DNA of 64,000 nucleotides from an uncultured Pirellulales bacterium. Lineage in GTDB: Bacteria > Planctomycetota > Planctomycetia > Pirellulales > UBA1268. Both the position numbers and the translations under genes were made by a program. Positions 37,186 to 55,500 of the stretch are shown in pieces (the first letter of the stretch is position 1; each line of letters opens with the position of its first letter). The notes beneath the pieces were generated by a model. The model made no database searches. It saw nothing but the letters and a program-made list of their open reading frames with translations, and was not told the origin of the DNA. Location: NCBI GenBank assembly GCA_965662325.1, contig CBFIHW010000001.1:6204-70203 (forward strand), written 5' to 3'.

Positions 37186-38259
37186 ATGACACGTCTGATT
37201 TCTCTTGGTGTAATTCTTGGGCTGGTGGTGATATTTGGGCTGCTCTCGCTAAGAGTTATGTCCATTTTTCTATTGCCACTTCTGTTGGCTGCAATGCTTG
37301 TCGTGATTTTTGGACCTATGTACAGAGCTCTGCGGCAGAAGTTAGGGGTGCAGGAATGGCTCGCTGCTGGTCTCACGACAGGATTTGTTTTGATCATAGT
37401 TCTTGTTCCGCTTGCGCTCCTTGTTGTCAGAGCCGGTGGAGATGCGATTGCAATGGCGCAAAGCCCTAATGGAATACGGCTTGACCCAACGGTGCTTTCC
37501 GGGCTCATTGAAACAGTGAATGAAACGACGGGTCTTTCCCTCACCGCTGACGACATCAATACAGAGTTGAAAAAAATAGCGGAAAACTTTTTTGGTCCGA
37601 TTGCGACGCGTGCTCCAGTCGTGGCAGCAAAGTTGTTTATCGGAGTGATTATTATGACTGTCGCACTGTTTTACTTTCTCGCCGATGGGGCAAGAATGTT
37701 TGACGCGGTGACACGATTAATTCCTCTCGATCAGCGATACCAGTGGCAGTTTTTAACAGAATTTGAGGAGGTTAGTCGTGCTGTAGTGAGCTCGACTTTA
37801 TTGGCTGCGATAGTCCAGGCCGTCCTAGCGGGGTTTGGTTTTTATGTCGCGGATCTCCAGGCTGTTTTTCTGTTAACGCTACTTACATTTTTTGGTGCTC
37901 TTATACCGTTTGTTGGTGCCGCAGCAGTTTGGGGTTCAGCTAGCCTCTATCTACTCTTTTTTGCAAAGAGTACGTGGGCGGCTGTTGGTCTTGCGTTATG
38001 GGGTGCCTTAGTGGTTTCAACAGTCGACAACATTATTAAGCCATACGTTTTGCAGGGGCAGTCAAAGCTTCATCCGCTGCTTGCGCTGCTGAGTATTCTG
38101 GGTGGAGTCGGTGCGTTGGGACCCATAGGAGTCTTTGTTGGGCCGATTGCAGTTGCATTCTTGCAAGCAGCCTTGACTATGCTACAGACTGAACTTGATA
38201 CGCTTTCAGATCACATGCCAGAGAAGGAAGCAACGGTCTCGCCGGAAAGCAACTTCTAA
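37186..38259 (+). CDS. AI-2E family transporter (PerM/UPF0118)
   Basis: The 357-aa protein has about 8 TM segments. The motif LIPFVGAAAVWG...VDNIIKPYVLQG is typical of the family. Confidence 0.8.
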   Translation: MTRLISLGVILGLVVIFGLLSLRVMSIFLLPLLLAAMLVVIFGPMYRALRQKLGVQEWLAAGLTTGFVLIIVLVPLALLVVRAGGDAIAMAQSPNGIRLDPTVLSGLIETVNETTGLSLTADDINTELKKIAENFFGPIATRAPVVAAKLFIGVIIMTVALFYFLADGARMFDAVTRLIPLDQRYQWQFLTEFEEVSRAVVSSTLLAAIVQAVLAGFGFYVADLQAVFLLTLLTFFGALIPFVGAAAVWGSASLYLLFFAKSTWAAVGLALWGALVVSTVDNIIKPYVLQGQSKLHPLLALLSILGGVGALGPIGVFVGPIAVAFLQAALTMLQTELDTLSDHMPEKEATVSPESNF

Positions 38260-38323: not shown

Positions 38324-38797
38324 ATGGTCATCGAATTACTAACACTGGTGGCCGCAATGTTGGCTACAGGAATTGAGACAGCATTTGTACCAAGTGATGG
38401 CGGGGGAGGAGAATACTTGGTACGAGTCGAACCCGATCTGGTTTCAAGCCGAAGCCCTTACACCTTCACGAGTGATATTCCAGTTGATGAACGGGATGTT
38501 CGAAGGGTATGTATTTATGTCGCGGATCACTGGCCGGCAGCTGTAGAACGAACAGTTATAGAAGCAGCGTCGCGTCCCAAAGCAACACCAGCTGGAATTG
38601 CTATGGACGATGGAGATGCCAGCAGGATCATCTCTGATAAAGAAAATAAACCGTGGTCACTCTTGGTTGGTTCATTGATAGCACTTTTTCTTTCGCTTGG
38701 TTGCAACGCCTACCTTGGTGTTCTTCTTGGAGGCATGCGAATACGGTACCTGTCGTTGGTCCGAGAGCGTATTCCTGATGTCTCCGGGGCAGGGTAG
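38324..38797 (+). CDS. Hypothetical protein with an N-terminal hydrophobic segment and a C-terminal TM anchor
   Basis: I recognise no motif in this 157-aa ORF. The hydrophobic segments are LLTLVAAMLATG at the N-terminus and WSLLVGSLIALFLSLGCNAYLGVLLGG near the C-terminus. A T7 run follows the stop. Confidence 0.45.
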   Translation: MVIELLTLVAAMLATGIETAFVPSDGGGGEYLVRVEPDLVSSRSPYTFTSDIPVDERDVRRVCIYVADHWPAAVERTVIEAASRPKATPAGIAMDDGDASRIISDKENKPWSLLVGSLIALFLSLGCNAYLGVLLGGMRIRYLSLVRERIPDVSGAG

Positions 38798-38903: not shown

Positions 38904-41900
38904 TCAACAAGACTCTGGCGGTAGAGTAATGTCTACTGTTCCGTCAGCTGAGATTTCTTTTGAACCAAGAGTACGAACGGTTGCTTTCGCTTCCCGAAAG
39001 AGCGTGGCCACGTGAGCATGGCACGTGAGAACCACCATTTGGTGATCACCGTTGCGATCATTCATGAATTCAACAAGAGTGCGTGATGCGGCTTTGGCCC
39101 GTTGATCATCAAAGTTAACCAAGGCGTCGTCCATAACCACAGGAAGTGTAATGCCTTGTTCGTGCAGGTCACGTACGAGGGCGAGTCGCAGAGCGAGAAA
39201 AACCTGTTCTCGAGTGCCTCGGCTGAGTCGTTCCGGGTTCCAGATCGAACCAGCAGCGTCATGGACATCAAGCCGGGCTTCATCAGCCGCCGTAGTGATC
39301 TGAACGTATCGGCCCTCTGTAAGTCGAGCAAGCCAGTGAGACGCTTCAATAAGTGCAGCGGGTTGGTGGTGCCTCGCCACTTCCGCACGGGTGCGTTCTA
39401 AAAGTTCGCAAGTACATTTGAGCAGAGAAATACGTTGATCATGTGCTGCTATTTGTGCATCAACTACAGCAACTTGATGCTGAATACTTTCCGGACCATT
39501 GTTTTTTTCGACCAGTTCGATTTCTTTCTCAATTTCGGCAATTCTGCCCTTCTGAACACGAAGGTTTTCGCGTAGTTCTTTTGTTGCGGTTTCAGCATCA
39601 GACAGTCGCTCTTCGAGAGAAATTTCAGAAGATTGCTCGATCCATGTGTCAAGTAGGCTCGGGTCTTCGAATCGACTCCTACCGTCTTGCCACGTTCGCT
39701 CTGCGATACGAGTCTTTTCCGTAAGCTCGTCAAAGTATGGCCGCCGATCAGTCTTTGAGAGAAATATTTCTTCAGTTTTAGCATCCCATCGTTCGAGCCT
39801 CGCTTTGAGTGTGCGGTCGCATACCTTGAGTTGGCGAATTGCCTGCCGATGGCGAATCCTCGCCCTTTCGAGCTTGCGGGCACATGTTTTTTGTCGTTCG
39901 TGGAGTTGCCGCTGCTTGTTCATAAGGTCATCGAGTTGCTGAAGTTGATCGAGTGAAGTGCCTTCTGGCACGAGTTCACACTCAACAAGGATTGCTTCAA
40001 TTCGTCTCGAAGCAGCAGCTAATTCTTCACGTTTATGACGAGCCTCGTCAGAGAGTCGCCGTCGGTCGTCGTCGAGCGTAAGGAGTTCGTGGCGGTGTGT
40101 GCCAATACGCCAGACTTCAGAAGGGCTTAAGGTGCTAGGTAGTCCTCTATGCTCAAGAGATTTCTGCCAGCGAGCAACGCTTTTCTTTCGTCGACTGAGA
40201 GCTATCTTTAATTTCTCCCTAGCTTTGGAGATGCGATCCCTGTGGCCGCGAAGGACTCCATCGTAGCTTGCCATGTGTTCCAGCCGAATGATTTCAGCGT
40301 CTGCCCGTGCGGCCTGTCGCTCGAGATTGGTTTGTCTCGCATCAGCGAATTCTGGCTGTGAATCATGCACCTCTGTACTGGAATATGAGTACTGACTTGA
40401 GGGTTTTGAGATTATGGTATCGAGTGTTTCGCATTGAGTGGAAATATCTTTGTACTGCTTTTGTGCAAGTGCGTGCTGGCGACGTGTTTCTCCAAGCCGT
40501 GCTCCGGAGGATTTGTCAAGCGTCCAGGTCATGACAGAGGCCACACCGGTGCCTGCCAGACCAAGTGCCGCGATGACGTAAGCAAGAGGGCCAGTTACAA
40601 CTGATGGCAACAGAAGGCCGGATAGCAGCATTCCGGCTCCAACAACAAAAATGCTGCCGAGCCCAAGCAACCAGCTTAATGGCATTACCTGGCTGGCAAG
40701 TTGTTTGCCCATTTCCTGTTCAAGTTGTGTGATCGTCTGGTGCAGTTCATTCATTCGTTCCCCCGCATTCATCCGTTTACGGATTGCCGCAGACTGTTCT
40801 GTAGCTGCTTCAACAGCAGCAGTGAGAGTTGAGCCGCTGAGTGCTGCTCCATCTTTGTCAAATTGTCGCTCAGCTTTCGCGAGTTCTGACCGTGCTCGGG
40901 CAACCTGCTTGCGAGCAGAAGCGACTGCCCGAGACGCACGTTTACAGTTACGTGCCCTATTGCGTAGCGGGCCGAATGAAAGCGAGAGCCCCTCAGGTAA
41001 TACAACAGCCATGCCGACGTCGGTGGTTAGTGGATCCTCAACCGAGATGACTTTTGTGAGTCCGCAGAGTCCGATCTGTTCCCCAAAACGGCGGGCTGCA
41101 AGCCTTGCATGAGCCTCGGTTCGAGTAACGTCGGCGACAAGTCGCTCTACATGCGAACGATCCTCTAGGAGACTCTGTATTTCAACACGTTTTTTCCAGA
41201 TGGCGGTCTTGGTGTCATGGCTGGCGAGTTCTCGGGCCAGTCTCCTTCTCTCATTCAATCGCTTTTTGACAACACGTGAGACCTGCTTTCGCTTTTTTGT
41301 ATCGTGTTGCCACCCATCGAAGTCAGGGTGCACCAAAGCAACCTTTTTGAGTGACTCGAGTTCGTCAGAGAGTCTTTGCCATGCGTGTCGTAACTGGCTT
41401 GTTGGCAGAGCGTCACGTGCAAGGCTTTCTGTAGCAGCGGCTCTTGTCACAGCTTTTTCAAGGTTTGTTATTTCTCGTCTGACTTTGGTGTGCTCAATGA
41501 ACAGGTCTCCAACATAATATTTAGATTGTGTGTCACTTTCGGCTTTCTGTAGCTCATCTCGTTTTTCGATAAGAAGTTGCCGCGGTGTCTTTTCGCTGTC
41601 TCCTTGTGCAAGTCGTTGAAGGGCTTCTTCGATCTGCCTAATAGTTCTTGCCACTTGTGATCTATCAAGACCATTTGCGAGTTCATATAACCGACTCCCA
41701 CACCCTTCCGGTGCAAGCGTGCGAAGTTCATGGAGTTCGTCAAGCCCAAAGGCCATGACGTTTGTGAATGTGGCTTCGTCAATATCGCCCACGATGTCCT
41801 GAAGATAGATGCGTTGATCATCCGTGTGGGCTCCATCAAGTTGCTCTACAGTGATACTGTCTCCCTCGTCACCACCGAGCCCAACGATGTCATCTTCGTA

Positions 41901-42215
41901 ACTTTCTCTTGTGAGTGCTGCGATGCCCGGTCCCTCGTGGCGGCGTTCAATGATGAAACGATGACGTTCTCGTTTGCCTCGAGGGCCTTTTCCTGTGACA
42001 ACAACGAGTCGGCCGCAACAAGGAACTTTTGGATCAAGAACACCTCTTCTAAATAATCCCTCGAACCCAAAGAACACAGCTCGGATGAACTCGAGTAATG
42101 AGGTTTTGCCGATTTCATTTGTGCCGTGAATAACTTCGATACCCTGACCAAGGTCTTTTAGGCTGACCTGTTGCAGTCCTCCGAAGCGTTCAATCTCAAG
42201 TCGCTCAATGTGCAT
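38904..42215 (-). CDS. SMC/SbcC-like AAA ATPase of the YhaN type (coiled coils interrupted by two TM helices)
   Basis: The N-terminus is MHIERLEIERFGG...HGTNEIGKTSLLEFI (Walker A). More than 800 aa of heptad-rich sequence follow. Central hydrophobic helices read LSWLLGLGSIFVVGAGMLLSGLLLP and LAYVIAALGLAGTGVASVMTW. The C-terminus has LSRGTREQVFLALRLAL (signature) and LPVVMDDALVNFDDQR (Walker B/D-loop). Confidence 0.75.
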   Translation of the reverse strand: MHIERLEIERFGGLQQVSLKDLGQGIEVIHGTNEIGKTSLLEFIRAVFFGFEGLFRRGVLDPKVPCCGRLVVVTGKGPRGKRERHRFIIERRHEGPGIAALTRESYEDDIVGLGGDEGDSITVEQLDGAHTDDQRIYLQDIVGDIDEATFTNVMAFGLDELHELRTLAPEGCGSRLYELANGLDRSQVARTIRQIEEALQRLAQGDSEKTPRQLLIEKRDELQKAESDTQSKYYVGDLFIEHTKVRREITNLEKAVTRAAATESLARDALPTSQLRHAWQRLSDELESLKKVALVHPDFDGWQHDTKKRKQVSRVVKKRLNERRRLARELASHDTKTAIWKKRVEIQSLLEDRSHVERLVADVTRTEAHARLAARRFGEQIGLCGLTKVISVEDPLTTDVGMAVVLPEGLSLSFGPLRNRARNCKRASRAVASARKQVARARSELAKAERQFDKDGAALSGSTLTAAVEAATEQSAAIRKRMNAGERMNELHQTITQLEQEMGKQLASQVMPLSWLLGLGSIFVVGAGMLLSGLLLPSVVTGPLAYVIAALGLAGTGVASVMTWTLDKSSGARLGETRRQHALAQKQYKDISTQCETLDTIISKPSSQYSYSSTEVHDSQPEFADARQTNLERQAARADAEIIRLEHMASYDGVLRGHRDRISKAREKLKIALSRRKKSVARWQKSLEHRGLPSTLSPSEVWRIGTHRHELLTLDDDRRRLSDEARHKREELAAASRRIEAILVECELVPEGTSLDQLQQLDDLMNKQRQLHERQKTCARKLERARIRHRQAIRQLKVCDRTLKARLERWDAKTEEIFLSKTDRRPYFDELTEKTRIAERTWQDGRSRFEDPSLLDTWIEQSSEISLEERLSDAETATKELRENLRVQKGRIAEIEKEIELVEKNNGPESIQHQVAVVDAQIAAHDQRISLLKCTCELLERTRAEVARHHQPAALIEASHWLARLTEGRYVQITTAADEARLDVHDAAGSIWNPERLSRGTREQVFLALRLALVRDLHEQGITLPVVMDDALVNFDDQRAKAASRTLVEFMNDRNGDHQMVVLTCHAHVATLFREAKATVRTLGSKEISADGTVDITLPPESC

Positions 42216-42290
42216 GAATAAGGTTCCTTGAAGGTAGTCGCGTTGGCGTTCTACTCACCTTTCCTTGGTGATTGCATCTTTTTTGCTCTT

Positions 42291-43502
42291 TTATTCACTT
42301 TCGAGAAGTTCAAGTGCCAGCCAGCCAGCTTCACGTTGGTCCGTTGTTCCGGGAGACGCAGCTTCGGCCTCTGTCACCAAGTCGGCGAGAGCAGATGTGA
42401 AAGAGTTGCTCGCACCCGGACGTCCTCCAGAACGGTTGCGTCCAAGGGCCGCAAGTGGTTCTTTAACGTCAGCAGAGATACTTTGTATCCAAATAGTAGG
42501 AGATGCCGCGGCACAACGTTCACGGAGAATCCTTTTTGTCTCCGGGGCAATTTCATTGACCTCTAGCCGTCGGGTGATACTGGTGCCGCATGCTATTTGG
42601 CAGTCTAATATGATAAGTGGATTCCCTGCTATTACTTCGTCGCCTTCTGGCACGACGGTACCCAGCAAATCCTGACAGGCTTCCCAGAGGAGTTGGGAGA
42701 GTGCTTCATGGTCCTCATCAGCTGATTCGATATGAATGGTTCGCCAGATAACCTCACTTACTGGAAGTTGTTTCCACTGATCAACTGTGCATTTATTTCC
42801 CAAACGAGAATTATTGTCACCATCAGCTTGTGGTTTGTAGAACGTAAGCCCATAGCAACCAGTGTTCAGTGAGTCCGTTTGGCGACGTGATTGAATACTC
42901 GGAAGTGGAAGAACATGATGAGGCAGTGAAGAAGGGGATTTCGTTGCCCAGATAGCTAACGTGCTAGGCTGCGACAAATGACTTGACGATAGAAATGATG
43001 TCACGTCATTGGCCAGGCGCGTATCCGAGCCAACAATGATTTGCCGATGGAGGGGCTCAAATGAACTCTGAGCAGCGATCCTCTCGACATCTGCTTCATT
43101 AGAAACAGCCCACAGTTCAACGGTTGTAGAACGAATAGTTTGGGTCCAGGGGCGGAGAGAGCTGGCAAAAGAGAGCCCTTTCGGTTCCCCCAGCATGCGT
43201 AGGAATTCCTGGCCATCAGCTGGATTTGTTGTCACCCAGAGCGTCTCGCAATCGTGGTCAGCAGCCTGGATAATCAAACGACGCAATGCAATGAGTTGTG
43301 CTGGACTCACACGAGTGGGGTCCACGATTGATCCACAGAGAACAATTCCTTGAACCTGTGATTCAATTGCAAGGTGGTATGTCTTTTCGAGCGTTTTTAG
43401 AGGTGCTCCACGGAGTCTGGCTGCGAGTGATTGAGGCATGTCGTCGGGTTCAGCAATCGCTTCGTCAATTGCTGGATTACCGATAAAGAGCAGATCGAAC
43501 AT
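42291..43502 (-). CDS. YhaO/SbcD-like calcineurin-fold protein with apparently degenerate phosphoesterase motifs
   Basis: The 403-aa length and position upstream of the YhaN-like ATPase match YhaO. The motif positions are kept but the residues are replaced: LLFIGNPAIDE (for hHxxDxHLG), IVLCGSIVD (for GDLFD), LWVTTNPAD (for GNHD), IIVGSD (for hhHG) and AIWATKS (for GHIH). A strong SD (AAGGAGGAG) precedes the ATG at 43502. Confidence 0.55.
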   Translation of the reverse strand: MFDLLFIGNPAIDEAIAEPDDMPQSLAARLRGAPLKTLEKTYHLAIESQVQGIVLCGSIVDPTRVSPAQLIALRRLIIQAADHDCETLWVTTNPADGQEFLRMLGEPKGLSFASSLRPWTQTIRSTTVELWAVSNEADVERIAAQSSFEPLHRQIIVGSDTRLANDVTSFLSSSHLSQPSTLAIWATKSPSSLPHHVLPLPSIQSRRQTDSLNTGCYGLTFYKPQADGDNNSRLGNKCTVDQWKQLPVSEVIWRTIHIESADEDHEALSQLLWEACQDLLGTVVPEGDEVIAGNPLIILDCQIACGTSITRRLEVNEIAPETKRILRERCAAASPTIWIQSISADVKEPLAALGRNRSGGRPGASNSFTSALADLVTEAEAASPGTTDQREAGWLALELLESE

Positions 43503-43660
43503 GGTCTCCTCCTTTCTTAGTAGGGCGAGCGTTGTCGTCGACGCGCGACACGCTCACAAAAAGGCGTGAGTCGCGTAACCGGTTAGCGTCGCTAATCTTT
43601 ACGTGGTTTACCTGGTCTGCCAGTCCGCTAGGGACTGTACCGGCAATCCGCTGAATTCCG

Positions 43661-44518
43661 CTACTGCAAAAGAGGTGGCTGGTGTGCAAATGCTTCGGCT
43701 GCCGCCTTGCACCAGTCTTTTTCAGCCTGAGATGGTCCCAGAACGGCCAAAATTCGGCCGCGATGGAGTACTCCTTTCTCAATTATTGTCGGGAAAAAAT
43801 AGCTTTTCAGCACGTGTTGATGTGCTGCTGGGCTATGACAAGCTTTGGCAGGTGTGGATGTCAACGCCGTGTGATGAATTTCGTCACTGCGGGTAAACAA
43901 TGCAATGGTGTGTTCAAAGCATGCAAGTTGGAATACAAAACATTGGACCAGTACGGTTTGGCCGGTGTTTTGGCTCCAGTACTCACGCGATCCTAGTGTC
44001 TCTCGTTCCCACTGGAATGAGTTATTCGACCATCTTCCTGTTTGCGCTGATGTTGCCAGGAATGAACATTCAACGGCAAGACATCCATCACTTTTCTCTC
44101 TGAGTGTCTCGCTGGAGAGAATGAGTTCTGCTGTAATCGAATTATCTATATCATTCGATGGGCACCACGTACTCTGAAGTCTCCATAAGCCGCTAGTTTT
44201 TAATTTCCGGGCATCGTTAACTGCATAGACACCAGTAGCGTCATTCCCCCGGAGCCAACCATCACTGAACGTAAGAGACTGTTTGGGAAGACAGATTCCA
44301 AGTATGGAAATCGAGGAGTCACCAGACTTTATGGATATGCCCGAGCCTGGTTTTGCTAAATCCAATTGAGTTGTCAGTGACCCAAGTTTGTGTGTCCATT
44401 TCTCACGATTAGCCCGCAAATTGTCTTCTGACTCGCTCGTGTCAGAAGTCCAATTTTGTTTTGACTGAGACTGAGATGGAGACTCGATTTTCATGATGGA
44501 GAATGTGTCTGCTGGCAA
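43661..44518 (-). CDS. Hypothetical protein (285 aa), first gene of the minus-strand cluster
   Basis: This is a long ORF on the same strand as the two downstream genes, with a 158-nt gap before the next one. I recognise no motif. An alternative start is the ATG at 44494. Confidence 0.45.
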   Translation of the reverse strand: MPADTFSIMKIESPSQSQSKQNWTSDTSESEDNLRANREKWTHKLGSLTTQLDLAKPGSGISIKSGDSSISILGICLPKQSLTFSDGWLRGNDATGVYAVNDARKLKTSGLWRLQSTWCPSNDIDNSITAELILSSETLREKSDGCLAVECSFLATSAQTGRWSNNSFQWERETLGSREYWSQNTGQTVLVQCFVFQLACFEHTIALFTRSDEIHHTALTSTPAKACHSPAAHQHVLKSYFFPTIIEKGVLHRGRILAVLGPSQAEKDWCKAAAEAFAHQPPLLQ

Positions 44519-45681: not shown

Positions 45682-45922
45682 GAGTGCGCCGACAATAGCG
45701 TTCATGTCACTTATGCATGATTGATAGGCCTTGAACTCCTTGAAAAACGCGGTTTCGCTGGTCTTTGGGGTTCAAGTCGTTGTAGGGTGATAATAGGTAG
45801 AAGTTTGCGCAATCGTTAAAAACTACCATATGAATAGGTGTCTGGAGCATTTGTTTCACTGCACAAAAATGGGAAGTAGCAGGGCCTTGGCCACAGTCAG
45901 ACGAATCACTGAGCGAAATGAC

Positions 45923-48900
45923 ATGTGCACAACTCACTCGCGAGTTGTTGTAAGTCGTTTGCTACTCACGCCGGTGTCCTCCTGCCTGTCTGTGGCCCAG
46001 CAATTTGTTGAGGTTTGTCTTCGTGTTTTTTTAGGGCTTCTGTTATTGGGAGGTTCATGTTTTGGAGAAGAGGCTCCTAGTGAACAGGAGGGGCCTGTGG
46101 CACGAGAAGTGAGACAAGTAGAACCGAGCCTGTATTACGTGGAGGATGACTTAGGTCGTTTGATTCCTGTTCCAGGATTTCGCTATCGAGACTTTGTAGA
46201 CCTTGTCCGGTTGCGAGATGGTTTGCCAGCTCAGGCAGAGACGCCGGGAGTTGTCCTTGAGCAACTGCGAATGAAAGTACTCTTGCCGGCTCCAACCGGG
46301 AGCAACGTTACGCATGCTGACGTTGATGTGGAGTGTGTTGTCCGAAGTACTCGGCAAGGCTGGGGTATGCTGCCACTGAAACTCCCCGAACTTGTTCTTG
46401 CGGAGCCACCCGAAGTTGTTGGGAATGGTGAAGTTGTGGTCACGGTTGATCCATCACCAGGAGATAGCAATACCAACATCTCAGCGAACCAACCATCTCG
46501 TCGACAAGGTGCCTTCGAGTCACCATCCATCTTGGACAAAGGCTTCCTTGTCTGGATTAATGAGCAGAATGAAGGGCAGGAGATTGACCCAGTGAAGAGC
46601 CGCGAAGGTGGAAGGCCTCATACGATTGTGCTGAAAGGTCAGATTCCGGTGGACGTGTCGCTGGATCGTGATCAAATGAGATTTACTTTACCAGCTGCTA
46701 CAGATTCAAAAATAACCATAGAAACGCAGCGACGCGGTCCTCTGGTCAAAATCAATGCTGGTGTTCTCACGCCTACCATACAACTGATCGACGGTGAGGA
46801 CGATACAGCAGGTAGCGTCGTAGAGATTCGTGGTGCGGTAGGGCCGACACGACTCCAGTTAGAGGAGCCTCTCATAGGAAATGCTCCTGTTCGGCAGATT
46901 GCTGAGTCCAAAGTTGAAAGTGTTGTTCGGGTAGATGGTCGATTGGCAAAGATAGAAGCCGAATTTACTCTAACGAATCTTGCCAAAAATGACGGTCTTT
47001 TTACTGTTCGGCTACCATCACGTTCAGTTGTTCGTTCAGTGGGAAGTGCCGCAAAAATACTCAGCCGTGGTGGCTCTCCTTCAAGGCCTCAAGTTGTCGT
47101 TCGGGTTGATACAACGAAAGATGGGAATGCTTCTTTTAAGCTTGTTTGTGAGCGAGCAATCGATACTTCGAGCGACGGTCCAATCGATGTTGGTGGTTTT
47201 TCTATTGACGAAATTCCACTATGGCGGCAATGGGGTCAGGTGAGTGTCTTTACTGATGAAGACTGGACTGTCGAGTGGGAGCCTCGATCCGGGAATAGAC
47301 AAATTGATGCAACCGCAACTCTTTCACAGGAAGGGTTTGTCGCGGCATTTGCGTTTGACTCGCAGCCTATGGCACTGCCGTTAGAGGTGCTTCCGCGGAG
47401 AAGTCAATTAGTAGTGGAACCGGAATATATCTTCCACGTCACCAGAAACAGGTTGGAGCTATCGATTCGTTTGCAAGCTGTGGTTCGTGGTGTTGCAGCA
47501 AAGAAACTTGATATCTTGGCACCGGGTTGGAACATAGAGGGAGTTGGTCCCCCAGGTGTTGTTGATAGTGCATCTGTGTCAGAGTCTTCGGGGGTGGTTA
47601 CTGTTCCATTTCTTAAGCCAATAGCCGGAGAGGTAGTGGTTGAACTGCAATGTAGCCGGCCACTCGATCCGGCTAGTGAGGAGGTGCAGTGGACCACACC
47701 TGTTCCAAAAGCTGATCTTGTTGGTCCTGCTAGTGTAGGAATTACTTCCGAAAGTGATATTGAAATCGTTCCAGATACGGAACGAATTGTAGGTATGAGT
47801 CGACAAGTTTTGTCACAGTTGAATAGCCCATCTGTTGATTTGTCGAGAATGTCGTATCGAGTTCAGGCCGATAAGGCGACTTTTGTGGCGACACGTCGTA
47901 TTCTTGATCAACAGATTGATGCCTCAATTACAGCACAAGTGGATGTCGGTTTGCGTCAGGTGGTTGTCCAACAGGCAACCCGTATAAACGTAGCTCATGT
48001 CCCGCTTCAATTCATTGAGTGGATGGTGCCTCAAAGTGTGGTTGAGACGGGTAGCATCGAGGCTCGCTTCAATGGCGAGTTATTGACCCCGGAAGTTATT
48101 AGTAGATCATCTGGAATCGATGATTTGGGTGGAGACGAATTGATCAATAATGAACCGGGAGCAGGTGCTGAAAGCGATACCGCTGAGCGTTCTTGGCGTA
48201 TTGTTCGGGTCCTATTACCCAATCCATTATTCGGGACTGCTGAACTTGTGACGCGGTATAGTCGACTCATACCGGAAATACCAGAAGAGGCAACAGTTCC
48301 GGTATCCATTCCTCTCCTGCTCCCAAAGGGTGCGGTTGTTGGTCGTCAATCAGTGACTCTTTCTTCTATCGAGGAATTGAATGTCGACGTTCGCGACGAC
48401 CGATGGAATCGAGAAGGGAATCTTCAAACAATTGGGCTCGGTAGAACATGGAACGCGTCGCAGGGGCAAGCAGCAATCGATATAGCAGTAAGCCAGAGTC
48501 AGAGGACTTCGCTTGGTGAAACTGTTGTAGAGGCGACCTGGGTGCGGACGACACTTCGGGGCCCAATGAGGACTGATCAATGGGCGCTTGCTGTGACAAG
48601 TTCCTCTGATGCTTTGACACTTACCCTGCCAGTTTTAACGGAAGATGAAAATGGTGATGTGCTGGGTAATCGAATAGCGAGAGCCAGGGTTAATAATTCA
48701 CCGTGGAGTACCGCGGACGAGGCTACAGGACGAGTCAATCTCGACTTAGGTCAAACGAGAGGAACTCATCTTGTTGAAGTAGAAGTGCGTCAACCACGAA
48801 AAGAGAGTTTATTGAACGGGGCGATCAAAGGGCTCGGTTGGGTCAACTTCCAGAGTTCTGTGATGCCATCATCCTCGCTGTATAGCCGTGTTGTCTGGGA

Positions 48901-49564
48901 AATCTTAGTACCTGATGGGTCCGAACTTCTGTGGGGCCCCCGAGGGTGGACAAGCCAACAAGTCTGGGACTGGAGTAGTCGAGGTTTGAATCAAAAGCCG
49001 GCGGTTTCAGTACAAGACTTGGCATCATGGGTAACTGCGGCTGCAAATCCACAGTCGAATATGCAGGGAAGACTAGGGTCGGGTTGGCTTTCTGTACCAA
49101 GAGATTTTATTGAACACAGGCGGGTGTTCTGTGATATGGGGAGTCCGGCTGATGTGGGTGTTTTTCTTTTCCCGCGGTGGTTACTTGTGCTCATTGCAAG
49201 TGGAATTCCACTTGCCGTCGGTGTGGTGTTAACTTTCCTTCCCAGATTGATAAAAGTGGTTTTGGTCGTAGCGTCTGTCATGTTCATTGGCGGCATGGCA
49301 ATAGGGCCAACAGTTACACTTTGCGTCCTGAAAGCTGGCTTGCCGGGTCTTGCACTTGCTGTACCCGCGGGCGTCACTAGTTGGTGGCGTCTTCTGCTCA
49401 AGAGTCGTACACAAGGTACGTATGAGCCGGAGTCATGGGAGATGGAGCATTTGGGTTCGAAGAAAGTATCCCTTCAAGAGTCACTCGTTATCAATATGAA
49501 GCCATCTACTGCGCAGACGGTTGTTCCTGCTGCGTCGTCTCAGTCAAGAGCTGAAACGGAGTAG
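45923..49564 (+). CDS. Giant envelope protein A (about 1,210-1,244 aa): signal/anchor, large non-repetitive domain, C-terminal cluster of about 3 TM helices
   Basis: The ORF is uninterrupted. The N-terminal hydrophobic stretch is CLRVFLGLLLLGGSCFG. The C-terminal hydrophobic cluster lies at 49163-49390. I recognise no catalytic motif. The start is uncertain (45830, 45923 or an internal GTG/TTG). Confidence 0.65.
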   Translation: MCTTHSRVVVSRLLLTPVSSCLSVAQQFVEVCLRVFLGLLLLGGSCFGEEAPSEQEGPVAREVRQVEPSLYYVEDDLGRLIPVPGFRYRDFVDLVRLRDGLPAQAETPGVVLEQLRMKVLLPAPTGSNVTHADVDVECVVRSTRQGWGMLPLKLPELVLAEPPEVVGNGEVVVTVDPSPGDSNTNISANQPSRRQGAFESPSILDKGFLVWINEQNEGQEIDPVKSREGGRPHTIVLKGQIPVDVSLDRDQMRFTLPAATDSKITIETQRRGPLVKINAGVLTPTIQLIDGEDDTAGSVVEIRGAVGPTRLQLEEPLIGNAPVRQIAESKVESVVRVDGRLAKIEAEFTLTNLAKNDGLFTVRLPSRSVVRSVGSAAKILSRGGSPSRPQVVVRVDTTKDGNASFKLVCERAIDTSSDGPIDVGGFSIDEIPLWRQWGQVSVFTDEDWTVEWEPRSGNRQIDATATLSQEGFVAAFAFDSQPMALPLEVLPRRSQLVVEPEYIFHVTRNRLELSIRLQAVVRGVAAKKLDILAPGWNIEGVGPPGVVDSASVSESSGVVTVPFLKPIAGEVVVELQCSRPLDPASEEVQWTTPVPKADLVGPASVGITSESDIEIVPDTERIVGMSRQVLSQLNSPSVDLSRMSYRVQADKATFVATRRILDQQIDASITAQVDVGLRQVVVQQATRINVAHVPLQFIEWMVPQSVVETGSIEARFNGELLTPEVISRSSGIDDLGGDELINNEPGAGAESDTAERSWRIVRVLLPNPLFGTAELVTRYSRLIPEIPEEATVPVSIPLLLPKGAVVGRQSVTLSSIEELNVDVRDDRWNREGNLQTIGLGRTWNASQGQAAIDIAVSQSQRTSLGETVVEATWVRTTLRGPMRTDQWALAVTSSSDALTLTLPVLTEDENGDVLGNRIARARVNNSPWSTADEATGRVNLDLGQTRGTHLVEVEVRQPRKESLLNGAIKGLGWVNFQSSVMPSSSLYSRVVWEILVPDGSELLWGPRGWTSQQVWDWSSRGLNQKPAVSVQDLASWVTAAANPQSNMQGRLGSGWLSVPRDFIEHRRVFCDMGSPADVGVFLFPRWLLVLIASGIPLAVGVVLTFLPRLIKVVLVVASVMFIGGMAIGPTVTLCVLKAGLPGLALAVPAGVTSWWRLLLKSRTQGTYEPESWEMEHLGSKKVSLQESLVINMKPSTAQTVVPAASSQSRAETE

Positions 49565-52500
49565 TGGTGCATATGTACAAAAAATTTTGTTTTCACAAAC
49601 CTTTTCGGCGACTACTTCTCGTAGCACTTATTCTGGTTCTTTGCAGATACGGTGTGAGACAAGACAATTTTTTATATGGAGCAGATGTCGATGAAGCCAA
49701 AGCAGGTGCTGTTGTCCAAGTTGAACCTGGCAGTATGTCCTTCTCTCGCGTGTACGTGCCTCCCGGCCGTCTTTCCGATGTCATTCGTGATAAGGAACGC
49801 TACATCCCGATGGCTGTCGATGAATTTGATAAGGTTGTGCAGCGGCTGTTGCCACCTGATACGAACCGTGCTTTTGATGGACCACGCCCGATTGCCGAAT
49901 ACGTCCTCTATGAAATGAAACTCGATGAATCGGGAGCGCTTCTTGGAGATGTTTCTGTACGGTTGCCGAATCTAGGTCGAGAAATTGAGGTTTTTCCAGG
50001 AGAGACACGCTTTCAAAATAGCCGTTGGCTAGATGAAGAAGGTGCGGCCTCACAACCAATTGATTGGTTACAGGAAAGTGTGGAATTACAGCCGCTAGAT
50101 AGATTATTGAAGCCGGATGGGGTGCAAGTTGATTTGTTCGGAAAGCCGAATGGCTCGATAGATTTTCAGGTACCTGGTGCAGGTACGTTCATTGCAAATC
50201 TTCGGGTGCTGCCTGTACGTACAGATCGCTCACTCAATCGAGGACTTTCCCTGGGTGTGGGCCAATCCAGCTTTTTATTCCCACGTGTCCCCTCCCTGTC
50301 GACAACACTCGTTCTCGATCTTCCAGGAACTCTTGTGCCGATGATTGTAGGTAACGTGCCGATCACAGATAGAACTGATGATAATGAATTGGCCTCTGAG
50401 GAATATTATCGTTGGCGATATGAATTTGGACCGAGACGGTTGCTTAATGTGACACTTTCTCCTCGACGTACAAGTCGTTGTTCGGTTTGGTCTAGTGTCT
50501 TTGTTGGAGAAAGAACTGTAGAGATTGGGACAGTTCTTCTTCCCGAAACAGTTTGGTCGGAAAGATCTTTACGACTCAAGATTGGTAAACAAGTCACAAT
50601 GATTAGCGCTCAGGCTTGTGGTGACGGGCCAAATCAAATGAGCAGATCTTATAAAATGGAGGTTCGTCATGAATCGAACGATACGATTAGTCTCCAATTG
50701 CCGGCAACCTTTGTTGGAACTAATGCACGCATTCTGCTTCGAAGTGTCATCTCAAGCATTCACCAGAAGAAGTCGAGTTTGCAACTTCCTGGTGTGGCGA
50801 TTGATCCAGAGCTTTGGGTTGGTGGTGGGTTTTTCATAGATGTAGAAAATTCCCTTCAATTATCTGATGTGGTGGCGGAAAATTGTCTTGCAATTGCGCC
50901 CGAAAAAGCAGTGGAATGGCCGAAGGTAGACAGTTTCAAAACCGGTTCACTGGACGGCTTAGCGAGTCAATTTAGCGAGCCGGGGTTTGTGTTTGAGCAA
51001 CAAGATGCAGGTGGTTCGTGTGGCGTTTCAGTTGTGAAAAGGCAGCCGGATTTTGATGTTGCTCGAGTAACGACAGTAGATGTTTCTTCTGCGTCACTGA
51101 TCGGACGTGCTGCCTGTGATATTCATGTCCGTCGTGGCAGCGTGCACAGTATTGTCGGACGTATTAGCAAGGAATGGTTTATCGATTCAGTTGAGCCACT
51201 TATCGCTGGAGATGTGTTGGCCGAGGGTGGCGCGGCAACAGAACAAGTCATTCCTGATCGTGTACAGCGTGATGTCGGTAAAGTGCTGGGGGTGCCATAT
51301 GAGTGGAAAGTAGTGCGAGGCAAGAACGAAGATCAGCTCATGCTCGATTTGCCAAGGGCTATTCATAAGGGAGAGAGCCTTCGGATTAAAATAACGGGAC
51401 ATCGTCGTGGTGTGCCTGCGGGTGGACAGATTCGCTCTACAGACGCCGAGATGGTTCAACTTGTCGGTGAAATTTCTGGTCAGGCTTGGATTGACTTGCG
51501 GACGAGCCCAGAGACCACATTAGTAAAGATTAAGGGGCCAGAAAATGAGGCATTATTCGAACCACGATTAACACTACTTACTGAACAAGGTGTTTGGCGG
51601 CAACGTGTGCCTGTAGGTCGGCTTGCTTCTCCGAAGGTGTTCCGGTTTCTTCGTAGAAGACCCCCTCTTGAGGTTCTTGCCCGTTCGCAGTTCACAGTTC
51701 GTGGAGATCAACTTAGTGAAACCTATAGTTTTTTGTGTCAGGCATTTCAGGGCGAACTCGATGCCGTCACGGTGCACTTTTCAGAACCGGTCGGAAATCT
51801 TGATTGGTCAGTTCTTTCTGATAGTGAGACAACCACTATTGCTCGTCGTCTCAATACCACCGAGTCAAATGTTGGTGCAGAGTCGAACAGCCTAAAAAGG
51901 TCTGTGAAAGAGTCCTGGTTGGTCGAATTGAATCCTCCGGTAACAGGGGCAGTAACTCTCCGAGCAACTGGAAAACAAGAATTTATAGAACAGACTGCCC
52001 TTCCTCTGGTGTGGGTTGAATCAGCAGTTGCGCCACAGGGTCGAATTAGTATTCAGTCTACCCGCGCAAGCCGCCCCTCAGTACTCAATCATCGACTTGT
52101 TCAACTGCCACCTTTGGCAGATCAGTTACCGTTGCCAATTCAGTCAGTAGTGGAGTTGCTATACGATGCATCGGCATTGGCCCAAACGGGCCCTTCCGTA
52201 GAAATACTACCAGTTCCTGATAGCGTTCAGTCTTTTGCCCGCGCTTGGGTTTGGAAAGAGAGTTCGCGGGTGCGATGTTATACATCTGCAAATGCGGAGT
52301 ATGAGACAACGTTTATAATTGAAAATGATGGCAGGCAAAGTGTTACTGTGAGTTTGCCAGAAGGCCATCGCCTAATTGGGCTAGAGGTTCAGGGTGAATC
52401 TATACCGTTACAGTCATCAAACGTAAGAGAGTTTCCTGTCTATCTGCCAAGTGGTCGTCAGCGAGTTTTTGTAACCGTGCATACAGCTGTTGCGGCCGAA

Positions 52501-55500
52501 TTTCTGCGAGGAATTTGGAAGCTGTCCTCAGTTGTACCAGCGGTTGATGCCCCCACACTTACTCGGGAAATGCAACTTGCTCTCCCAAAGAATATACGGT
52601 TGGTTGGAGTGCCGTCCGGATACACAGAAATTTTTCAGCAGGATACTGACTGGATCGAAAGGCTTTCTGGACTGTCTCAACGAGAGTCATGGTTTGCAAA
52701 TACGAGTCCCAATGCTGCTTTGTCTACGTTCAACTCGCGATGGTTTGTTCCAACAAGTGGACGATACAGGCCGAGATTCTTTCTCCTGGTTAACCGATGG
52801 TTGTTGGCTGTGTCAGCTCTTAGTGTTGCTGCAGCCGCAACGTTGTTGTCATTGTCTTTTTTCTGGAGGAGTGCATGGTTATTAGTTGCCAGTGTTGTGG
52901 TTGCTTCAGTAGCTGCGTTGTGGGTGCCCCCACCCTTTGATCTGATAGCTCGTGCAAGCTTGTGGGGAATTCTTGCTGCTGCTGGTTTTCGTGTCTGGAT
53001 ATATGGGCGTGCGAAGAAGCAAATATCTTTTGTGTTTCTTGTATGTATGTCCTCAGGAGTTTGTTCCTATGGGAGTGAGATACCTATGCAGGTGTTTCTA
53101 ACCCCAGTTGATGGAGAAACAACGGCTCTGGTTCCGGAGCCACTGTACAAAGTGTTAGTAGGAACGAATGCAGCCCAGTCGTCTAAAGTGCGTATTTTGA
53201 ACTCACGAATTGAGTTGCCATCGGCTCCTAGTTCGGCTACCCAGAACAATGATGAAATTTGGCATCTCAAGCTCTTGGTGCAAACTGATTCAGCTGACGT
53301 GCTTTTGCTTGATCAGTCAGCTGCAGGAAGCCGTTTTAGTGATGAGCCGTTTCTTCTTGATGGCGGGTCGTTAAGTGTGTCGTTGTCTGCGGACCGTCAT
53401 CAGGCACAGCTATCACTTCCAGCTGGAGGAAGGCATAGCCTTATTATTCCATTGGAGCCTGTAAGAACACGAACGGGTGATATAGAGGTTCATGAGATCT
53501 GCCTCCCGAGGTCTCCCCAGACCGTGGTCGCTGTGATGCCTCAGGACGAAATGGCTAATTCACGTGACGTGCGTAGAAAAATTCAGTGCGAATGGTCGAT
53601 TGGGCAGGGGATTTTTCAGCCAGCGCAAGAGGTTGTGTCTCTTGATTCACGGCTGCAGAGGTTCAGGGTTCCGCCTGCCGACCGTCTGCGAGTTATTAAC
53701 ACTTTGGATAGTAAAGAAACTTTAACAACAGTCGTTCATGAAGCGGAAAGTAGAAATGAGATCTCATGGACACCAAACGGCATCATTCTGATGGCGGAAT
53801 TTAGGATTACTGGTGGTGATGCAATACTGCCGTCATTCTGGATTCAGGCAGACCCTCGCCTTGTTCTCAATCAAGGCCAAGACAATGAAAATGCATTTGG
53901 TATGAGAGGTGAATTTGAGATTCACTCATTAGGGCAAGGCATCTACAGAGTCGATCGTACCGAGCCCAACAGAGAGAAGATAGCGTTTCAGGTGTCATTT
54001 CGTATGCCATTGATAAATCATATTGGAAAATATGAGTTGCCGTATGCGTGGGTCCGCGGAGTTGAACGCGACACTCGTGAGTCAATATTGGCTGGTAGCT
54101 CAGGTCTTTCATGCAACGTACAGTTTCCTGAGGCAGTAGCTCCTCCACAGGTGAATGAAGTTGGGGACGGGACGTTGCAATGGGTTACCGAACTTATCGA
54201 AAGTGTTGATGATTCGTTGCCTGAAAGTAGTTTCACAGATTTTTCTAAAGATGGGTTCGATGCAAGTCGTCAGCCCTTTGTCTTGCAGAGACAGGCGGCA
54301 TACGTAGAGGTGAATCGCGAGCAAACACCTCTACGTGGGACACAGCAAATGGAAATCGTAGACGGTGTAGATAAGAATCACCTAGTTTATGAAGCCACAA
54401 TTGATTCAAGTCAGACAGCTTGGATCAAGGATCGCGTCAGTATTCCCGCGGGTTATCGGCTTGAGTCCTGTCAAGTATTTGAGAAAAAAAGTGTAACCAC
54501 CAGCCTTCAGAACGAACGGCCGCTCGACATCTTTTTGCAGAAAGAAAAGCAAGGGGTTTATGGGGTGCTTCTTCAGCAGCCCCGTCCGGGCATTTTTACT
54601 TTACGAGTTCAGGCAACCAGTAATGCTCATCTTCCAGGGAAAGGGGTTTTGCCTCTCGTGCGGTCGTTTTCCGCCATTAAATTTCCCTATTCATTGATCT
54701 GGAGAGGTGTTGGCCGGCGAAGCAATATTACGATTCTTGGTGATCAGCAAAGTTCAGAACAAAATATGGTTCATGAAAGTCTGGCCGATGACAGTAGTCT
54801 TGGTCTGCTTGCGATGCGACTTTCTGATGAAAATCAGAGAAATGTTTGGCGTGTTGAACTGCCATCGAACGATGAAATGTGGTCATATCAGAGTGAGATA
54901 AAGCCGCAACGCGAACTGGTGGATCGTCCGGATTCGGTACTGGCTAGTACCGATGTTGGTCCGATGGCGATAGTCGATTCTTCTCTTGCTGTGCCGCTCA
55001 TTGACGTCGAAGTGGTTGTTGATGAGCGTGGTCGGATTTCAGGTATTTGTTGTATTGAATTACCAATGACGGGCCCCGAAGTGCGGATTCGAGTACCGGC
55101 AGGATTTCGGGTTTATGAAACGTTGCTAGATGGTCAGCAGATTCAGGCCCAAACACCTCGTCGTGACAGTCCATCTGAAGTGTGGTCTGTTCCCATACGG
55201 ACAGGTTCCTGGCCACACGAACTGGTCTTTATATTCGTTGGAGAATTCGAGGCGACAACCATGCAAGGGGAGCCAGTGTCATTGGCTTTGCCCAGCGTTG
55301 TTGGAATGCCGGTTGAGCGAGTTTTGTGGACAATTAATCATCCCATAAACCGGGTGGTCCGTTTTGCCGGGCGTGGAGACGTATTAAATGAGTATGAATC
55401 ACGTGAGATAAGGATGAACGTACAAACAGAAATTGACGATCTCATCGCCACTATTTCACCTGCACTACCCAAGGAAGTGGGTGTGCGATTGCACGAGTTG

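Follow-up and report, generated by a model that had tools for sequence, protein, structure and literature searches.

A YhaO-YhaN-like pair of Pirellulales whose Mre11-like subunit lacks the canonical metal ligands

A two-metal centre is what usually defines nucleases of the Mre11/SbcD type, and the non-nucleolytic roles of Mre11-Rad50 complexes (tethering, clamping and signalling) are normally studied with engineered nuclease-dead alleles. The locus described here raises the question of whether a natural lineage carries such a machine with its nuclease site erased, and of what the machine may then do. It lies on the minus strand at positions 38904-44518 of the window, that is, the whole 64,000-nucleotide (nt) stretch analysed here, from an uncultured Pirellulales bacterium. 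The locus comprises three open reading frames (ORFs), coding for proteins of 285, 403 and 1,103 amino acids (aa), with a gap of 158 nt (43503-43660) between the first two, all at the coordinates given in a preliminary description of the sequence, whose quoted motif strings were likewise all found at the expected residues of the ATPase and the 403-aa protein. By homology and gene order, the latter two genes correspond, as planctomycete (Pirellulales) orthologues, to the Mre11/Rad50-like pair yhaO-yhaN (sbcF-sbcE) of Bacillus. The features of the locus are the following:

38904..42215, minus strand: ATPase gene, coding for a YhaN/SbcE-type SMC/Rad50-like ATP-binding cassette (ABC) ATPase of 1,103 aa.
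39126..39227, minus strand: ATPase segment from the ABC signature LSRGTREQ (aa 997-1004) to the Walker B motif VVMDD (aa 1026-1030).
40527..40688, minus strand: central hydrophobic hairpin of the ATPase (about aa 510-563), two transmembrane (TM) helices predicted by a hydropathy scan at the coiled-coil apex.
42099..42125, minus strand: Walker A motif GTNEIGKTS of the ATPase (aa 31-39).
42291..43502, minus strand: gene of the 403-aa protein, predicted to have the Mre11/SbcD/YhaO fold, without any canonical metal ligand ('null-site' YhaO orthologue).
42300..42401, minus strand: C-terminal helix-loop-helix of the 403-aa protein (aa 368-401), a putative domain for binding the ATPase coiled coil.
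43506..43514, minus strand: Shine-Dalgarno sequence AAGGAGGAG, 3 nt upstream of the ATG of the 403-aa gene, occurring once in the window.
43661..44518, minus strand: 285-aa ORF (ORF285) with a TTG start, conserved, with a predicted galactose-mutarotase-like beta-supersandwich fold; a possible accessory gene.

The architecture of Bacillus YhaN (SbcE), which the preliminary description recognised in the ATPase, is supported by profile and pairwise comparisons. The Pfam profiles AAA_23 (5.8e-9) and AAA_27 (5.2e-8), the second being the YhaN-type match that had been expected, were both recovered above the gathering threshold in the N-terminal part only; the AAA_27 match scores 33.2 bits against a cut-off of 22 and covers only profile positions 1-54. 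In a BLASTP comparison with Bacillus YhaN, the C-terminal head (aa 871-1075, E 7e-19) and the N-terminal head (aa 1-177, E 6e-10) align collinearly, with an identity of about 27-28%; a phmmer search of the PDB with the ATPase gave no match. The Bacillus YhaN and YhaO sequences taken as references come from the yhaO-yhaN-yhaM operon of NZ_CP093325.1 (L087), in which yhaO lies upstream of yhaN. This entry is filed as Bacillus 'plasmid p1' and is evidently a chromosome, with its 5.5 Mb and its chromosomal yhaO-yhaN-yhaM operon.

The motifs GTNEIGKTS, LSRGTREQ and VVMDD start at aa 31, 997 and 1026 of the ATPase, respectively, as had been described, and they are strongly conserved among 73 orthologues from other genomes. 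In Walker A, G31, N33, E34, G36, K37 and T38 are invariant; LSRGTREQ is identical in 73 of 73 sequences, and MDDALVNFDD, around Walker B, varies only by M/I at position 1028 and by one gapped sequence, the H-loop LTCHAH being conserved likewise. Each motif has its counterpart in Bacillus YhaN:

Walker A: GTNEIGKTS in the window ATPase, GENEAGKST in Bacillus YhaN.
Signature: LSRGTREQ in the window ATPase, LSQATAEQ in Bacillus YhaN.
Walker B: VVMDDALVNFDD in the window ATPase, FIIDDSFVHFD in Bacillus YhaN.
H-loop: LTCHAH in the window ATPase, FTCHAH in Bacillus YhaN.

Since the 'DD' of Walker B is also present in Bacillus YhaN, it is typical of the family and does not represent a defect. Between the heads, two arms rich in helix-forming residues (approximately aa 173-507 and 571-970, by a crude proxy) flank the two central hydrophobic helices that had been noticed before, and the central hydrophobic segment is present in 72 of the 73 orthologues. 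A CxxC zinc hook is absent from the window ATPase and from all 73 orthologues. The ratio of non-synonymous to synonymous substitution rates (dN/dS), calculated here and below against six relatives, is 0.09-0.16 for the ATPase gene. SbcE was described as having a unique central domain, hydrophobic and insoluble, with no CxxC motif, and an adjoining SbcD-like gene, yhaO (PMC2811018); the window ATPase matches this description in its hydrophobic centre, in the absence of CxxC and in its adjacent SbcD-like gene, and is thus of the SbcE type. By these sequence characters, the 1,103-aa ATPase is a true YhaN/SbcE homologue, Rad50-like and with a predicted membrane hairpin.

The 403-aa protein matched no Pfam, NCBIfam or PADLOC profile. 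The Pfam Metallophos profile (PF00149), a match to which had been anticipated, was recovered at E<=1 neither from the window protein nor from any of 18 family members, and the protein and its family profile gave noise only against PDB sequences. Its own family, the null-site family, is tight (first found as 31 clusters, alignment A1) and its members are named only 'hypothetical', wherever they are named. An AlphaFold2 (AF2) model built on A1 reached a pLDDT (predicted local distance difference test score) of 76.8, with 83-96 in the N-terminal 140 residues, and a pTM (predicted template modelling score) of 0.76. With this model, the top 50 Foldseek matches in the PDB were all Mre11/SbcD structures (E 4e-8 to 3e-6, probability 1.0, TM-score 0.38-0.50), as expected of a calcineurin-fold homologue and of the YhaO/SbcD partner proposed in the preliminary description.

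A chain of profile comparisons points in the same direction. An exhaustive profile search (1.84 billion representatives) retrieved, at E 1e-9 to 1e-4, proteins of approximately 410 aa with weak Metallophos matches, named 'DNA repair exonuclease SbcCD nuclease subunit' or 'metallophosphoesterase [Pirellulaceae]'. The alignment of these planctomycete YhaO-like proteins (A2) matches A1 in hhalign with 99.7% probability (E 1.7e-25, 371 columns), and matches Bacillus YhaO (99.9%, E 7.6e-36), Pyrococcus furiosus Mre11 (E 3e-7) and Escherichia coli SbcD (E 1.5e-6). Compared directly, A1 and Bacillus YhaO align by hhalign over residues 3-93 (68.8%, E 4.5e-5). The layout of Mre11/SbcD is kept in the 403-aa protein, with a phosphoesterase core, a capping domain, a flexible linker and a C-terminal helix pair. 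The AF2 model places these two helices (368-382 and 387-401) downstream of the disordered linker; they are among the most conserved segments of the null-site family (SFTSALAD...REAxWLALEL), and a terminal REAAxLGxxLL motif is common to the 403-aa protein and its relatives in A2. From sequence and model, we infer that the pair at aa 368-401 binds the coiled coil of the ATPase. By predicted fold and profile chain, the 403-aa protein is a genuine Mre11/SbcD/YhaO homologue.

We then compared the metal-ligand positions, at which the preliminary description had found the ligands replaced in all five motifs. Motifs I-III were placed both by direct hhalign to Bacillus YhaO and through A2 to P. furiosus Mre11, with concordant results, and a joint MAFFT alignment, which covers all five motifs, gave the same correspondence. 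Conservation was assessed in 85 sequences, namely the window protein and 84 orthologues, of which 80 come from species-representative genomes (L005-L084, all of them metagenome-assembled genomes of uncultured Pirellulales/Planctomycetia, 31-87% identical):

Motif I: D-L-H in Bacillus YhaO, N9-P-A11 in the window protein (LLFIGNPAIDE, from aa 4); position 11, that of the His, is A in 79/85 and His in 0/85.
Motif II: G-D in Bacillus YhaO, G57-S58 in the window protein (GSIVD, from aa 57); position 58, that of the bridging Asp, is R in 52/85, S in 19/85 and Asp in 0/85.
Motif III: G-N-H-D in Bacillus YhaO, T92-N93-P94-A95 in the window protein (TNPAD, from aa 92); positions 93-94, those of Asn-His, are D/E/N followed by P/A/T, with His in 0/85.
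Motif IV: L-H-G in Bacillus YhaO, V157-G158-S159 in the window protein (IIVGSD, from aa 155); position 158, that of the His, is G in 83/85 and never His.
Motif V: Y-W-A-L-G-H-I-H in Bacillus YhaO, I-W-A-T-K-S... in the window protein (IWATKS, from aa 184), with an apparently shortened loop; the His positions, 189 and 191 (S189 and S191 in the window protein), have no conserved His.

The GHxH loop of motif V seems to be deleted: only 4-7 of the 85 sequences have a His within two residues of its former positions, and no column of the family alignment exceeds His in 62/85. The canonical DxH/GD/GNHD/H/GH ligands were restored in none of the alignments. Read from these alignments, the 403-aa protein has lost both metal sites, and would be, as was suggested earlier, catalytically dead.

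The loss of ligands is not accompanied by signs of decay of the gene. The 403-aa ORF is intact and full-length in the 84 loci from other genomes, its dN/dS is 0.13-0.22, and 57 positions of the family are conserved at 95% or more in the 85 sequences; these fall, among other segments, in the helix that follows motif II (SPAQ...R), in LGEPxGLxF and CG..RR, and in the C-terminal helices SF..A...REAxWLALEL. A Shine-Dalgarno-like GGAG/GAGG/AGGA motif lies upstream of the start of the orthologue in 66 of 84 loci. In every locus that reaches far enough, the ATPase gene follows directly downstream, at a distance of -4 to 107 nt. These observations agree with the earlier argument, made from the strong Shine-Dalgarno sequence, that this is an expressed-looking gene and no decaying pseudogene: by its pattern of substitution and conservation, the 403-aa gene is a working gene under purifying selection.

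The relatives collected in A2, which form a family of at least 1,010 protein clusters, retain part of the site. In 120 members, the residues corresponding to D11, H13, D61 and H202 of Bacillus YhaO are kept in 94%, 93%, 92% and 89%, respectively, and those corresponding to N96, H97 and H200 in 0%, with H168 in 53%. In P. furiosus Mre11, we take the metal-1 ligands to be D8, H10, D49 and H208 and the metal-2 ligands to be D49, N84, H173 and H206. Read against these, the A2-type proteins keep metal site 1 alone, and we therefore call them 'half-site' proteins; they may be single-metal or inactive enzymes. Their sources name them SbcD/Mre11 nuclease or metallophosphoesterase. Three half-site genes were considered in their genomic context:

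L085:10001-11230: half-site gene.
L089:10001-11314: half-site gene, itself with GD changed to GG.
L090:10001-11236: half-site gene.

Half-site genes are followed by genes of 1,200-aa AAA_27 ATPases with a TM hairpin, and one such ATPase, encoded beside a half-site gene, can be aligned with that of the window from end to end (E 2e-65). On the 4.2-Mb contig L089, the gene order is InosP (minus strand), a 240-aa protein, the YhaO-like protein and the YhaN-like ATPase; the 240-aa protein is a homologue of ORF285 (97%, E 1e-10), and InosP is 43% identical to the InosP encoded in the window. On the basis of this shared InosP/ORF285-like/YhaO-like/YhaN-like position, the null-site family is taken as the positional orthologue of the half-site family. 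The YhaN-like ATPase of L089 (11311-14816) is called as two ORFs of 739 and 438 aa; an assembly error, a frameshift or a true split of the gene may account for this.

Together, these proteins suggest a stepwise loss. It would start from a full site, as in Bacillus and in a pair on a Sphingobium plasmid (a full-site pair, annotated as 'DNA repair exonuclease' and 'YhaN family protein'). The next stage would be the half site of most planctomycete YhaO-like proteins, with the metal-1 D, H, D and H kept and the N, the catalytic H and the first H of GHxH lost, and the last would be the null site of the window lineage, in which a sub-clade with N9, S58 and N93 is the most neutralised. As far as alignment and gene position can tell, the series from full through half to null is a decay within one orthologous lineage.

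The third gene of the locus, ORF285, belongs to an orphan family: neither the ORF (Pfam, NCBIfam, PADLOC) nor any family member (Pfam) gave a profile match. It has 43 homologue clusters, an invariant C-terminal motif (FPTxIEKGVLHRGR), an R-x-DE motif, a hydrophilic, disordered N-terminus without signal peptide, and a dN/dS of 0.17-0.30. Its start is ambiguous as judged from the sequence, being either the TTG (285 aa) or an internal ATG at 44494 (MKIE..., 277 aa); most homologues begin at the latter, and some have a longer MPAD... N-terminus. The AF2 model (pLDDT 77.5, pTM 0.80) is all-beta with a C-terminal helix, and its Foldseek matches are the YidC P1 domain, the YeaD mutarotase and N-terminal domains of glycoside hydrolases (E about 1e-5), with TM-scores of 0.43-0.50 to single-domain YidC P1 and YeaD chains and lower ones to multidomain enzymes; nothing nuclease-like was found among them.

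In most loci, and also at L089 among the half-site ones, the gene immediately preceding the pair is a homologue of ORF285, and tblastn undercounts these cases. No homologue precedes the pair that the L002 lineage has retained, and the two other half-site loci lack one as well. Two candidate relatives of ORF285 were rejected by their low probabilities: a 273-aa ORF that precedes the pair in L002 (0.6%) and a 540-aa gene that precedes the half-site pair in L085 (0.1%). The apparent lack of ORF285 in L030 was rejected as well, as a diverged copy is present there (98.7%). The linkage that the preliminary description had asked about holds, therefore, for most loci and fails in the L002 lineage. The suggestion that this ORF supplies the nuclease finds no support in its mutarotase-like fold, its lack of library matches and its absence from a lineage that keeps the pair. 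Judged by its sequence family and position, ORF285 is a real, conserved and mostly linked gene, and its protein is possibly an accessory to the pair; because the whole surrounding block is syntenic, its adjacency is weak evidence of functional coupling.

This block consists of eight genes (a 1,244-aa protein, InosP, ORF285, the 403-aa ORF, the ATPase, a 157-aa membrane protein, an AI-2E transporter and a family 2 glycosyltransferase, GT2). About 80 species-level genomes share it in synteny, at identities as low as 31%; the neighbours are of housekeeping type, and no mobile or defence genes occur near the pair. From locus to locus, the pair and its neighbours rise and fall in identity together, and the pair therefore seems to be vertically inherited, unlike patchy defence islands. 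Twelve of these syntenic blocks, of Pirellulales type, carry titles of Candidatus Kuenenia, Chitinophagaceae or Planctomicrobium piriforme (L019, L022, L026, L027, L038, L044, L055, L063, L065, L067, L070 and L083), which are probably bin mislabels. The neighbours of the locus in the window are:

37186-38259, plus strand: AI-2E-family transporter, within about 1-2 kb of the YhaON-like pair, as is its counterpart at L085:6854-8230; it occurs in null-site loci and, rearranged, in the half-site locus L085, with 55% identity over the C-terminal half.
38324-38797, plus strand: 157-aa predicted membrane protein with no Pfam match, convergent with the ATPase gene; of the loci long enough to show it, nearly all keep the two side by side, also in the L002 lineage, which lacks ORF285.
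45830-49564, plus strand: 1,244-aa ORF with no Pfam match, part of the block in most related loci, at 31-89% identity.
49564-56097, plus strand: 2,177-aa ORF with no Pfam match, overlapping the former stop to start; a 2,156-aa counterpart, also without Pfam match, was seen in L001 only.

The guanine plus cytosine (G+C) content of the region is about 49-52%, with no compositional break, and an Rfam scan of 36-47 kb gave no match. An imperfect G+C-rich hairpin (CGCGACUCACG...CGUGUCGCG) lies at 43544-43575 on the minus strand, inside the 158-nt gap and approximately 40 nt upstream of the 403-aa start. Against shuffled sequences, the predicted RNA fold of the entire gap shows no significant gain in stability (z = -1.6). 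A promoter and terminator scan gave counts at or below shuffle expectation, and so is silent on whether the gap splits transcription units.

What, then, may the pair do? We consider it rather probable that it forms a non-nucleolytic, membrane-tethered YhaON complex, in which the dead subunit is a scaffold and ATP drives the clamping of DNA without cutting. The ATPase and the 403-aa protein would form an SbcCD-like heterotetramer, with the heads in the cytoplasm and the coiled-coil apex in the cytoplasmic membrane. The dead Mre11-like dimer would be a structural gate, a DNA-binding platform and a regulator of the ATPase. With ATP as its fuel, the complex would keep DNA (probably DNA ends) clamped or tethered at the membrane, uncut; any processing would fall to other nucleases. 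The 403-aa protein itself probably works as a non-cutting scaffold. Of the earlier proposal of a membrane-tethered Rad50-like ATPase with a non-catalytic scaffold, both identities and the loss of ligands stand; 'dead' and 'scaffold' keep their conditional sense.

Several points weigh against this interpretation. Complex formation, DNA binding and membrane insertion are all deduced from homology as their sole basis, and the physiological role of Bacillus YhaON is itself loosely defined. The ligand positions come from sequence and profile alignment rather than from coordinate superposition. Most family members, although not the window protein, keep acids round the former site (D9 in 66/85, D13 in 65, D61 in 71, D or E at position 93 in 65 and D160 in 76), and in these members a carboxylate-only metal site is conceivable. 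Finally, the conserved neighbours are membrane or envelope genes (the AI-2E transporter, GT2 and the 157-aa membrane protein) and not repair genes. A bolder version, which we regard as possible and rather doubtful, is that Planctomycetes turned YhaON into a nuclease-free membrane DNA tether or into a machine for a new substrate, by losing metal site 2 and then metal site 1, with an Arg/acid pocket and possibly a mutarotase-fold accessory protein.

The membrane genes lead to an alternative in which the complex acts away from DNA, the membrane-anchored coiled-coil ATPase and its scaffold serving a membrane or envelope process. The loss of the nuclease site and the membrane hairpin at the apex would suit such a role, as would the persistence of the transporter (found beside the half-site pair of L085 too), the glycosyltransferase and the small membrane protein. 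These neighbours are, however, on the opposite strand or convergent in a region that is syntenic as a whole, which makes their adjacency weak evidence. Moreover, Bacillus YhaN, which shares the hydrophobic centre, has phenotypes in DNA repair and competence (PMC2811018), and both the motifs of the heads and the Mre11-like architecture are what one expects of ABC ATPases that clamp DNA. We therefore hold a role off DNA to be unlikely.

It is also conceivable, and in our view quite unlikely, that the 403-aa protein is still a hydrolase, through a remodelled carboxylate (Mg2+) or non-canonical site, and that the complex remains a nuclease. The acidic pocket of the family majority and the strong conservation of the protein could be explained in this way. 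The window sub-clade, nevertheless, has N9, S58 and N93, and those acids are thus dispensable; no His is found at the ligand positions and the GHxH loop has apparently gone. In addition, D9, R58 and D/E93 occur together in 45 sequences, that is, in 45 of the 50 that combine D9 with R58, a pattern that suits a salt bridge better than metal binding. To our knowledge, no metallophosphoesterase with this remaining ligand set is known. We infer instead an Arg/acid salt-bridge network that would fill the old metal pocket and was afterwards neutralised in the window sub-clade, whose N9-S58-N93 combination may be a single evolutionary event.

A third possibility, raised in part by the preliminary description when it mentioned defence, is that the trio is a Lamassu-like sensor or defence system, with the 285-aa protein, or a protein encoded elsewhere, as its separate effector. 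The ATPase has its best PADLOC match, a weak one, with LmuB (E 1e-9, two stretches spanning aa 1-484, for a profile without curated threshold), and most loci have the 285-aa gene linked to the pair. Lamassu was proposed to descend from an SbcCD that lost the nuclease domain of SbcD and gained a separate effector (PMC12663957). The other PADLOC matches are, however, generic P-loop ones to the first 50 or so residues, and the 285-aa protein has no effector domain and is mutarotase-like, and one lineage with the pair lacks it. The core block around the pair, of housekeeping type, is deeply syntenic, and the identity of the pair follows that of its neighbours, as fits vertical inheritance. A defence role is thus not favoured, and we regard it as very improbable. 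Lastly, the reading of the 403-aa ORF as a decaying pseudogene or a mis-called ORF, to which its 'hypothetical' names and its lack of Pfam or NCBIfam matches might lead, is refuted by selection, conserved positions, intactness, a confident fold model and the conserved Shine-Dalgarno motif.

In the bolder version given above, the lineage would have in its YhaON complex a 'separation-of-function' Mre11 that arose in nature and became fixed long ago. In yeast, Mre11 alleles that have lost nuclease activity still serve in tethering and signalling. Here, an order-level lineage seems to have long kept a complete machine, with the motifs of the ATPase invariant and the nuclease site erased, while a far larger group of relatives is frozen at the half-site stage. 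In this sense, the locus is a clear case from nature of an Mre11/Rad50-type machine that has retained a pseudo-nuclease, and its series of intermediates is informative, although its hosts are uncultured and its function is deduced. It would offer a natural system for asking what a Rad50-like motor does without a nuclease, and a handle on the almost unstudied membrane-anchored YhaN/SbcE branch; the YhaN/YhaO literature is essentially one 2009 study, and in the literature we found no description of a ligand-less YhaO/SbcD homologue or of a planctomycete YhaON. It also carries a warning for annotation, since more than 1,000 planctomycete clusters, many of them named 'SbcD nuclease' or 'metallophosphoesterase', belong to a group in which key catalytic residues are lacking in the 120 members examined.

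Compared with known systems, the window pair resembles in organisation Bacillus subtilis YhaO-YhaN (SbcF-SbcE), with an SbcD-like gene followed by that of an SMC-like ATPase. Both head halves of the ATPases are homologous and share the motifs GxNExGK[ST], LSxxTxEQ, hhhDD..V.FD and TCHAH, as well as a hydrophobic two-helix centre without the CxxC hook (PMC2811018). The window partner equals Bacillus YhaO in size and in overall Mre11/SbcD architecture, although the similarity is detectable by profile only, and it has none of the canonical ligands, all of which are present in Bacillus YhaO (DLH, GD, GNHD, LHG and GHIH). The window locus also differs in having no yhaM-like exoribonuclease gene downstream and a mutarotase-fold gene upstream. 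The half-site planctomycete proteins are full-length homologues (hhalign 99.7%) that share the C-terminal REAAxLGxxLL helix and are likewise followed by a TM-hairpin AAA_27 ATPase, in one case at the same InosP/ORF285-like position. Both families lack the motif III Asn-His and the first GHxH His, whereas the half-site proteins, unlike the window family, keep D, H, D and the second GHxH His in about 90%.

With SbcCD/Mre11-Rad50, the window pair shares the Mre11 fold, the logic of an ABC ATPase with a coiled coil and the adjacency of the genes; in the window pair, a membrane hairpin replaces the zinc hook, and the Mre11-like subunit has no metal ligands. Lamassu LmuB-LmuC, like the window pair, combines a Rad50/SbcC-derived ATPase with a non-catalytic SbcD-derived subunit (PMC12663957). 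The window pair differs in keeping the whole SbcD fold and not the C-terminal domain alone, and its locus differs in having no recognisable LmuA-type effector and in lying in syntenic core genome rather than in a defence island. Since LmuC was proposed to stem from the non-catalytic C-terminal domain of SbcD (PMC12663957), Lamassu provides a precedent for an SbcD remnant as the non-catalytic partner of a Rad50-like ATPase.

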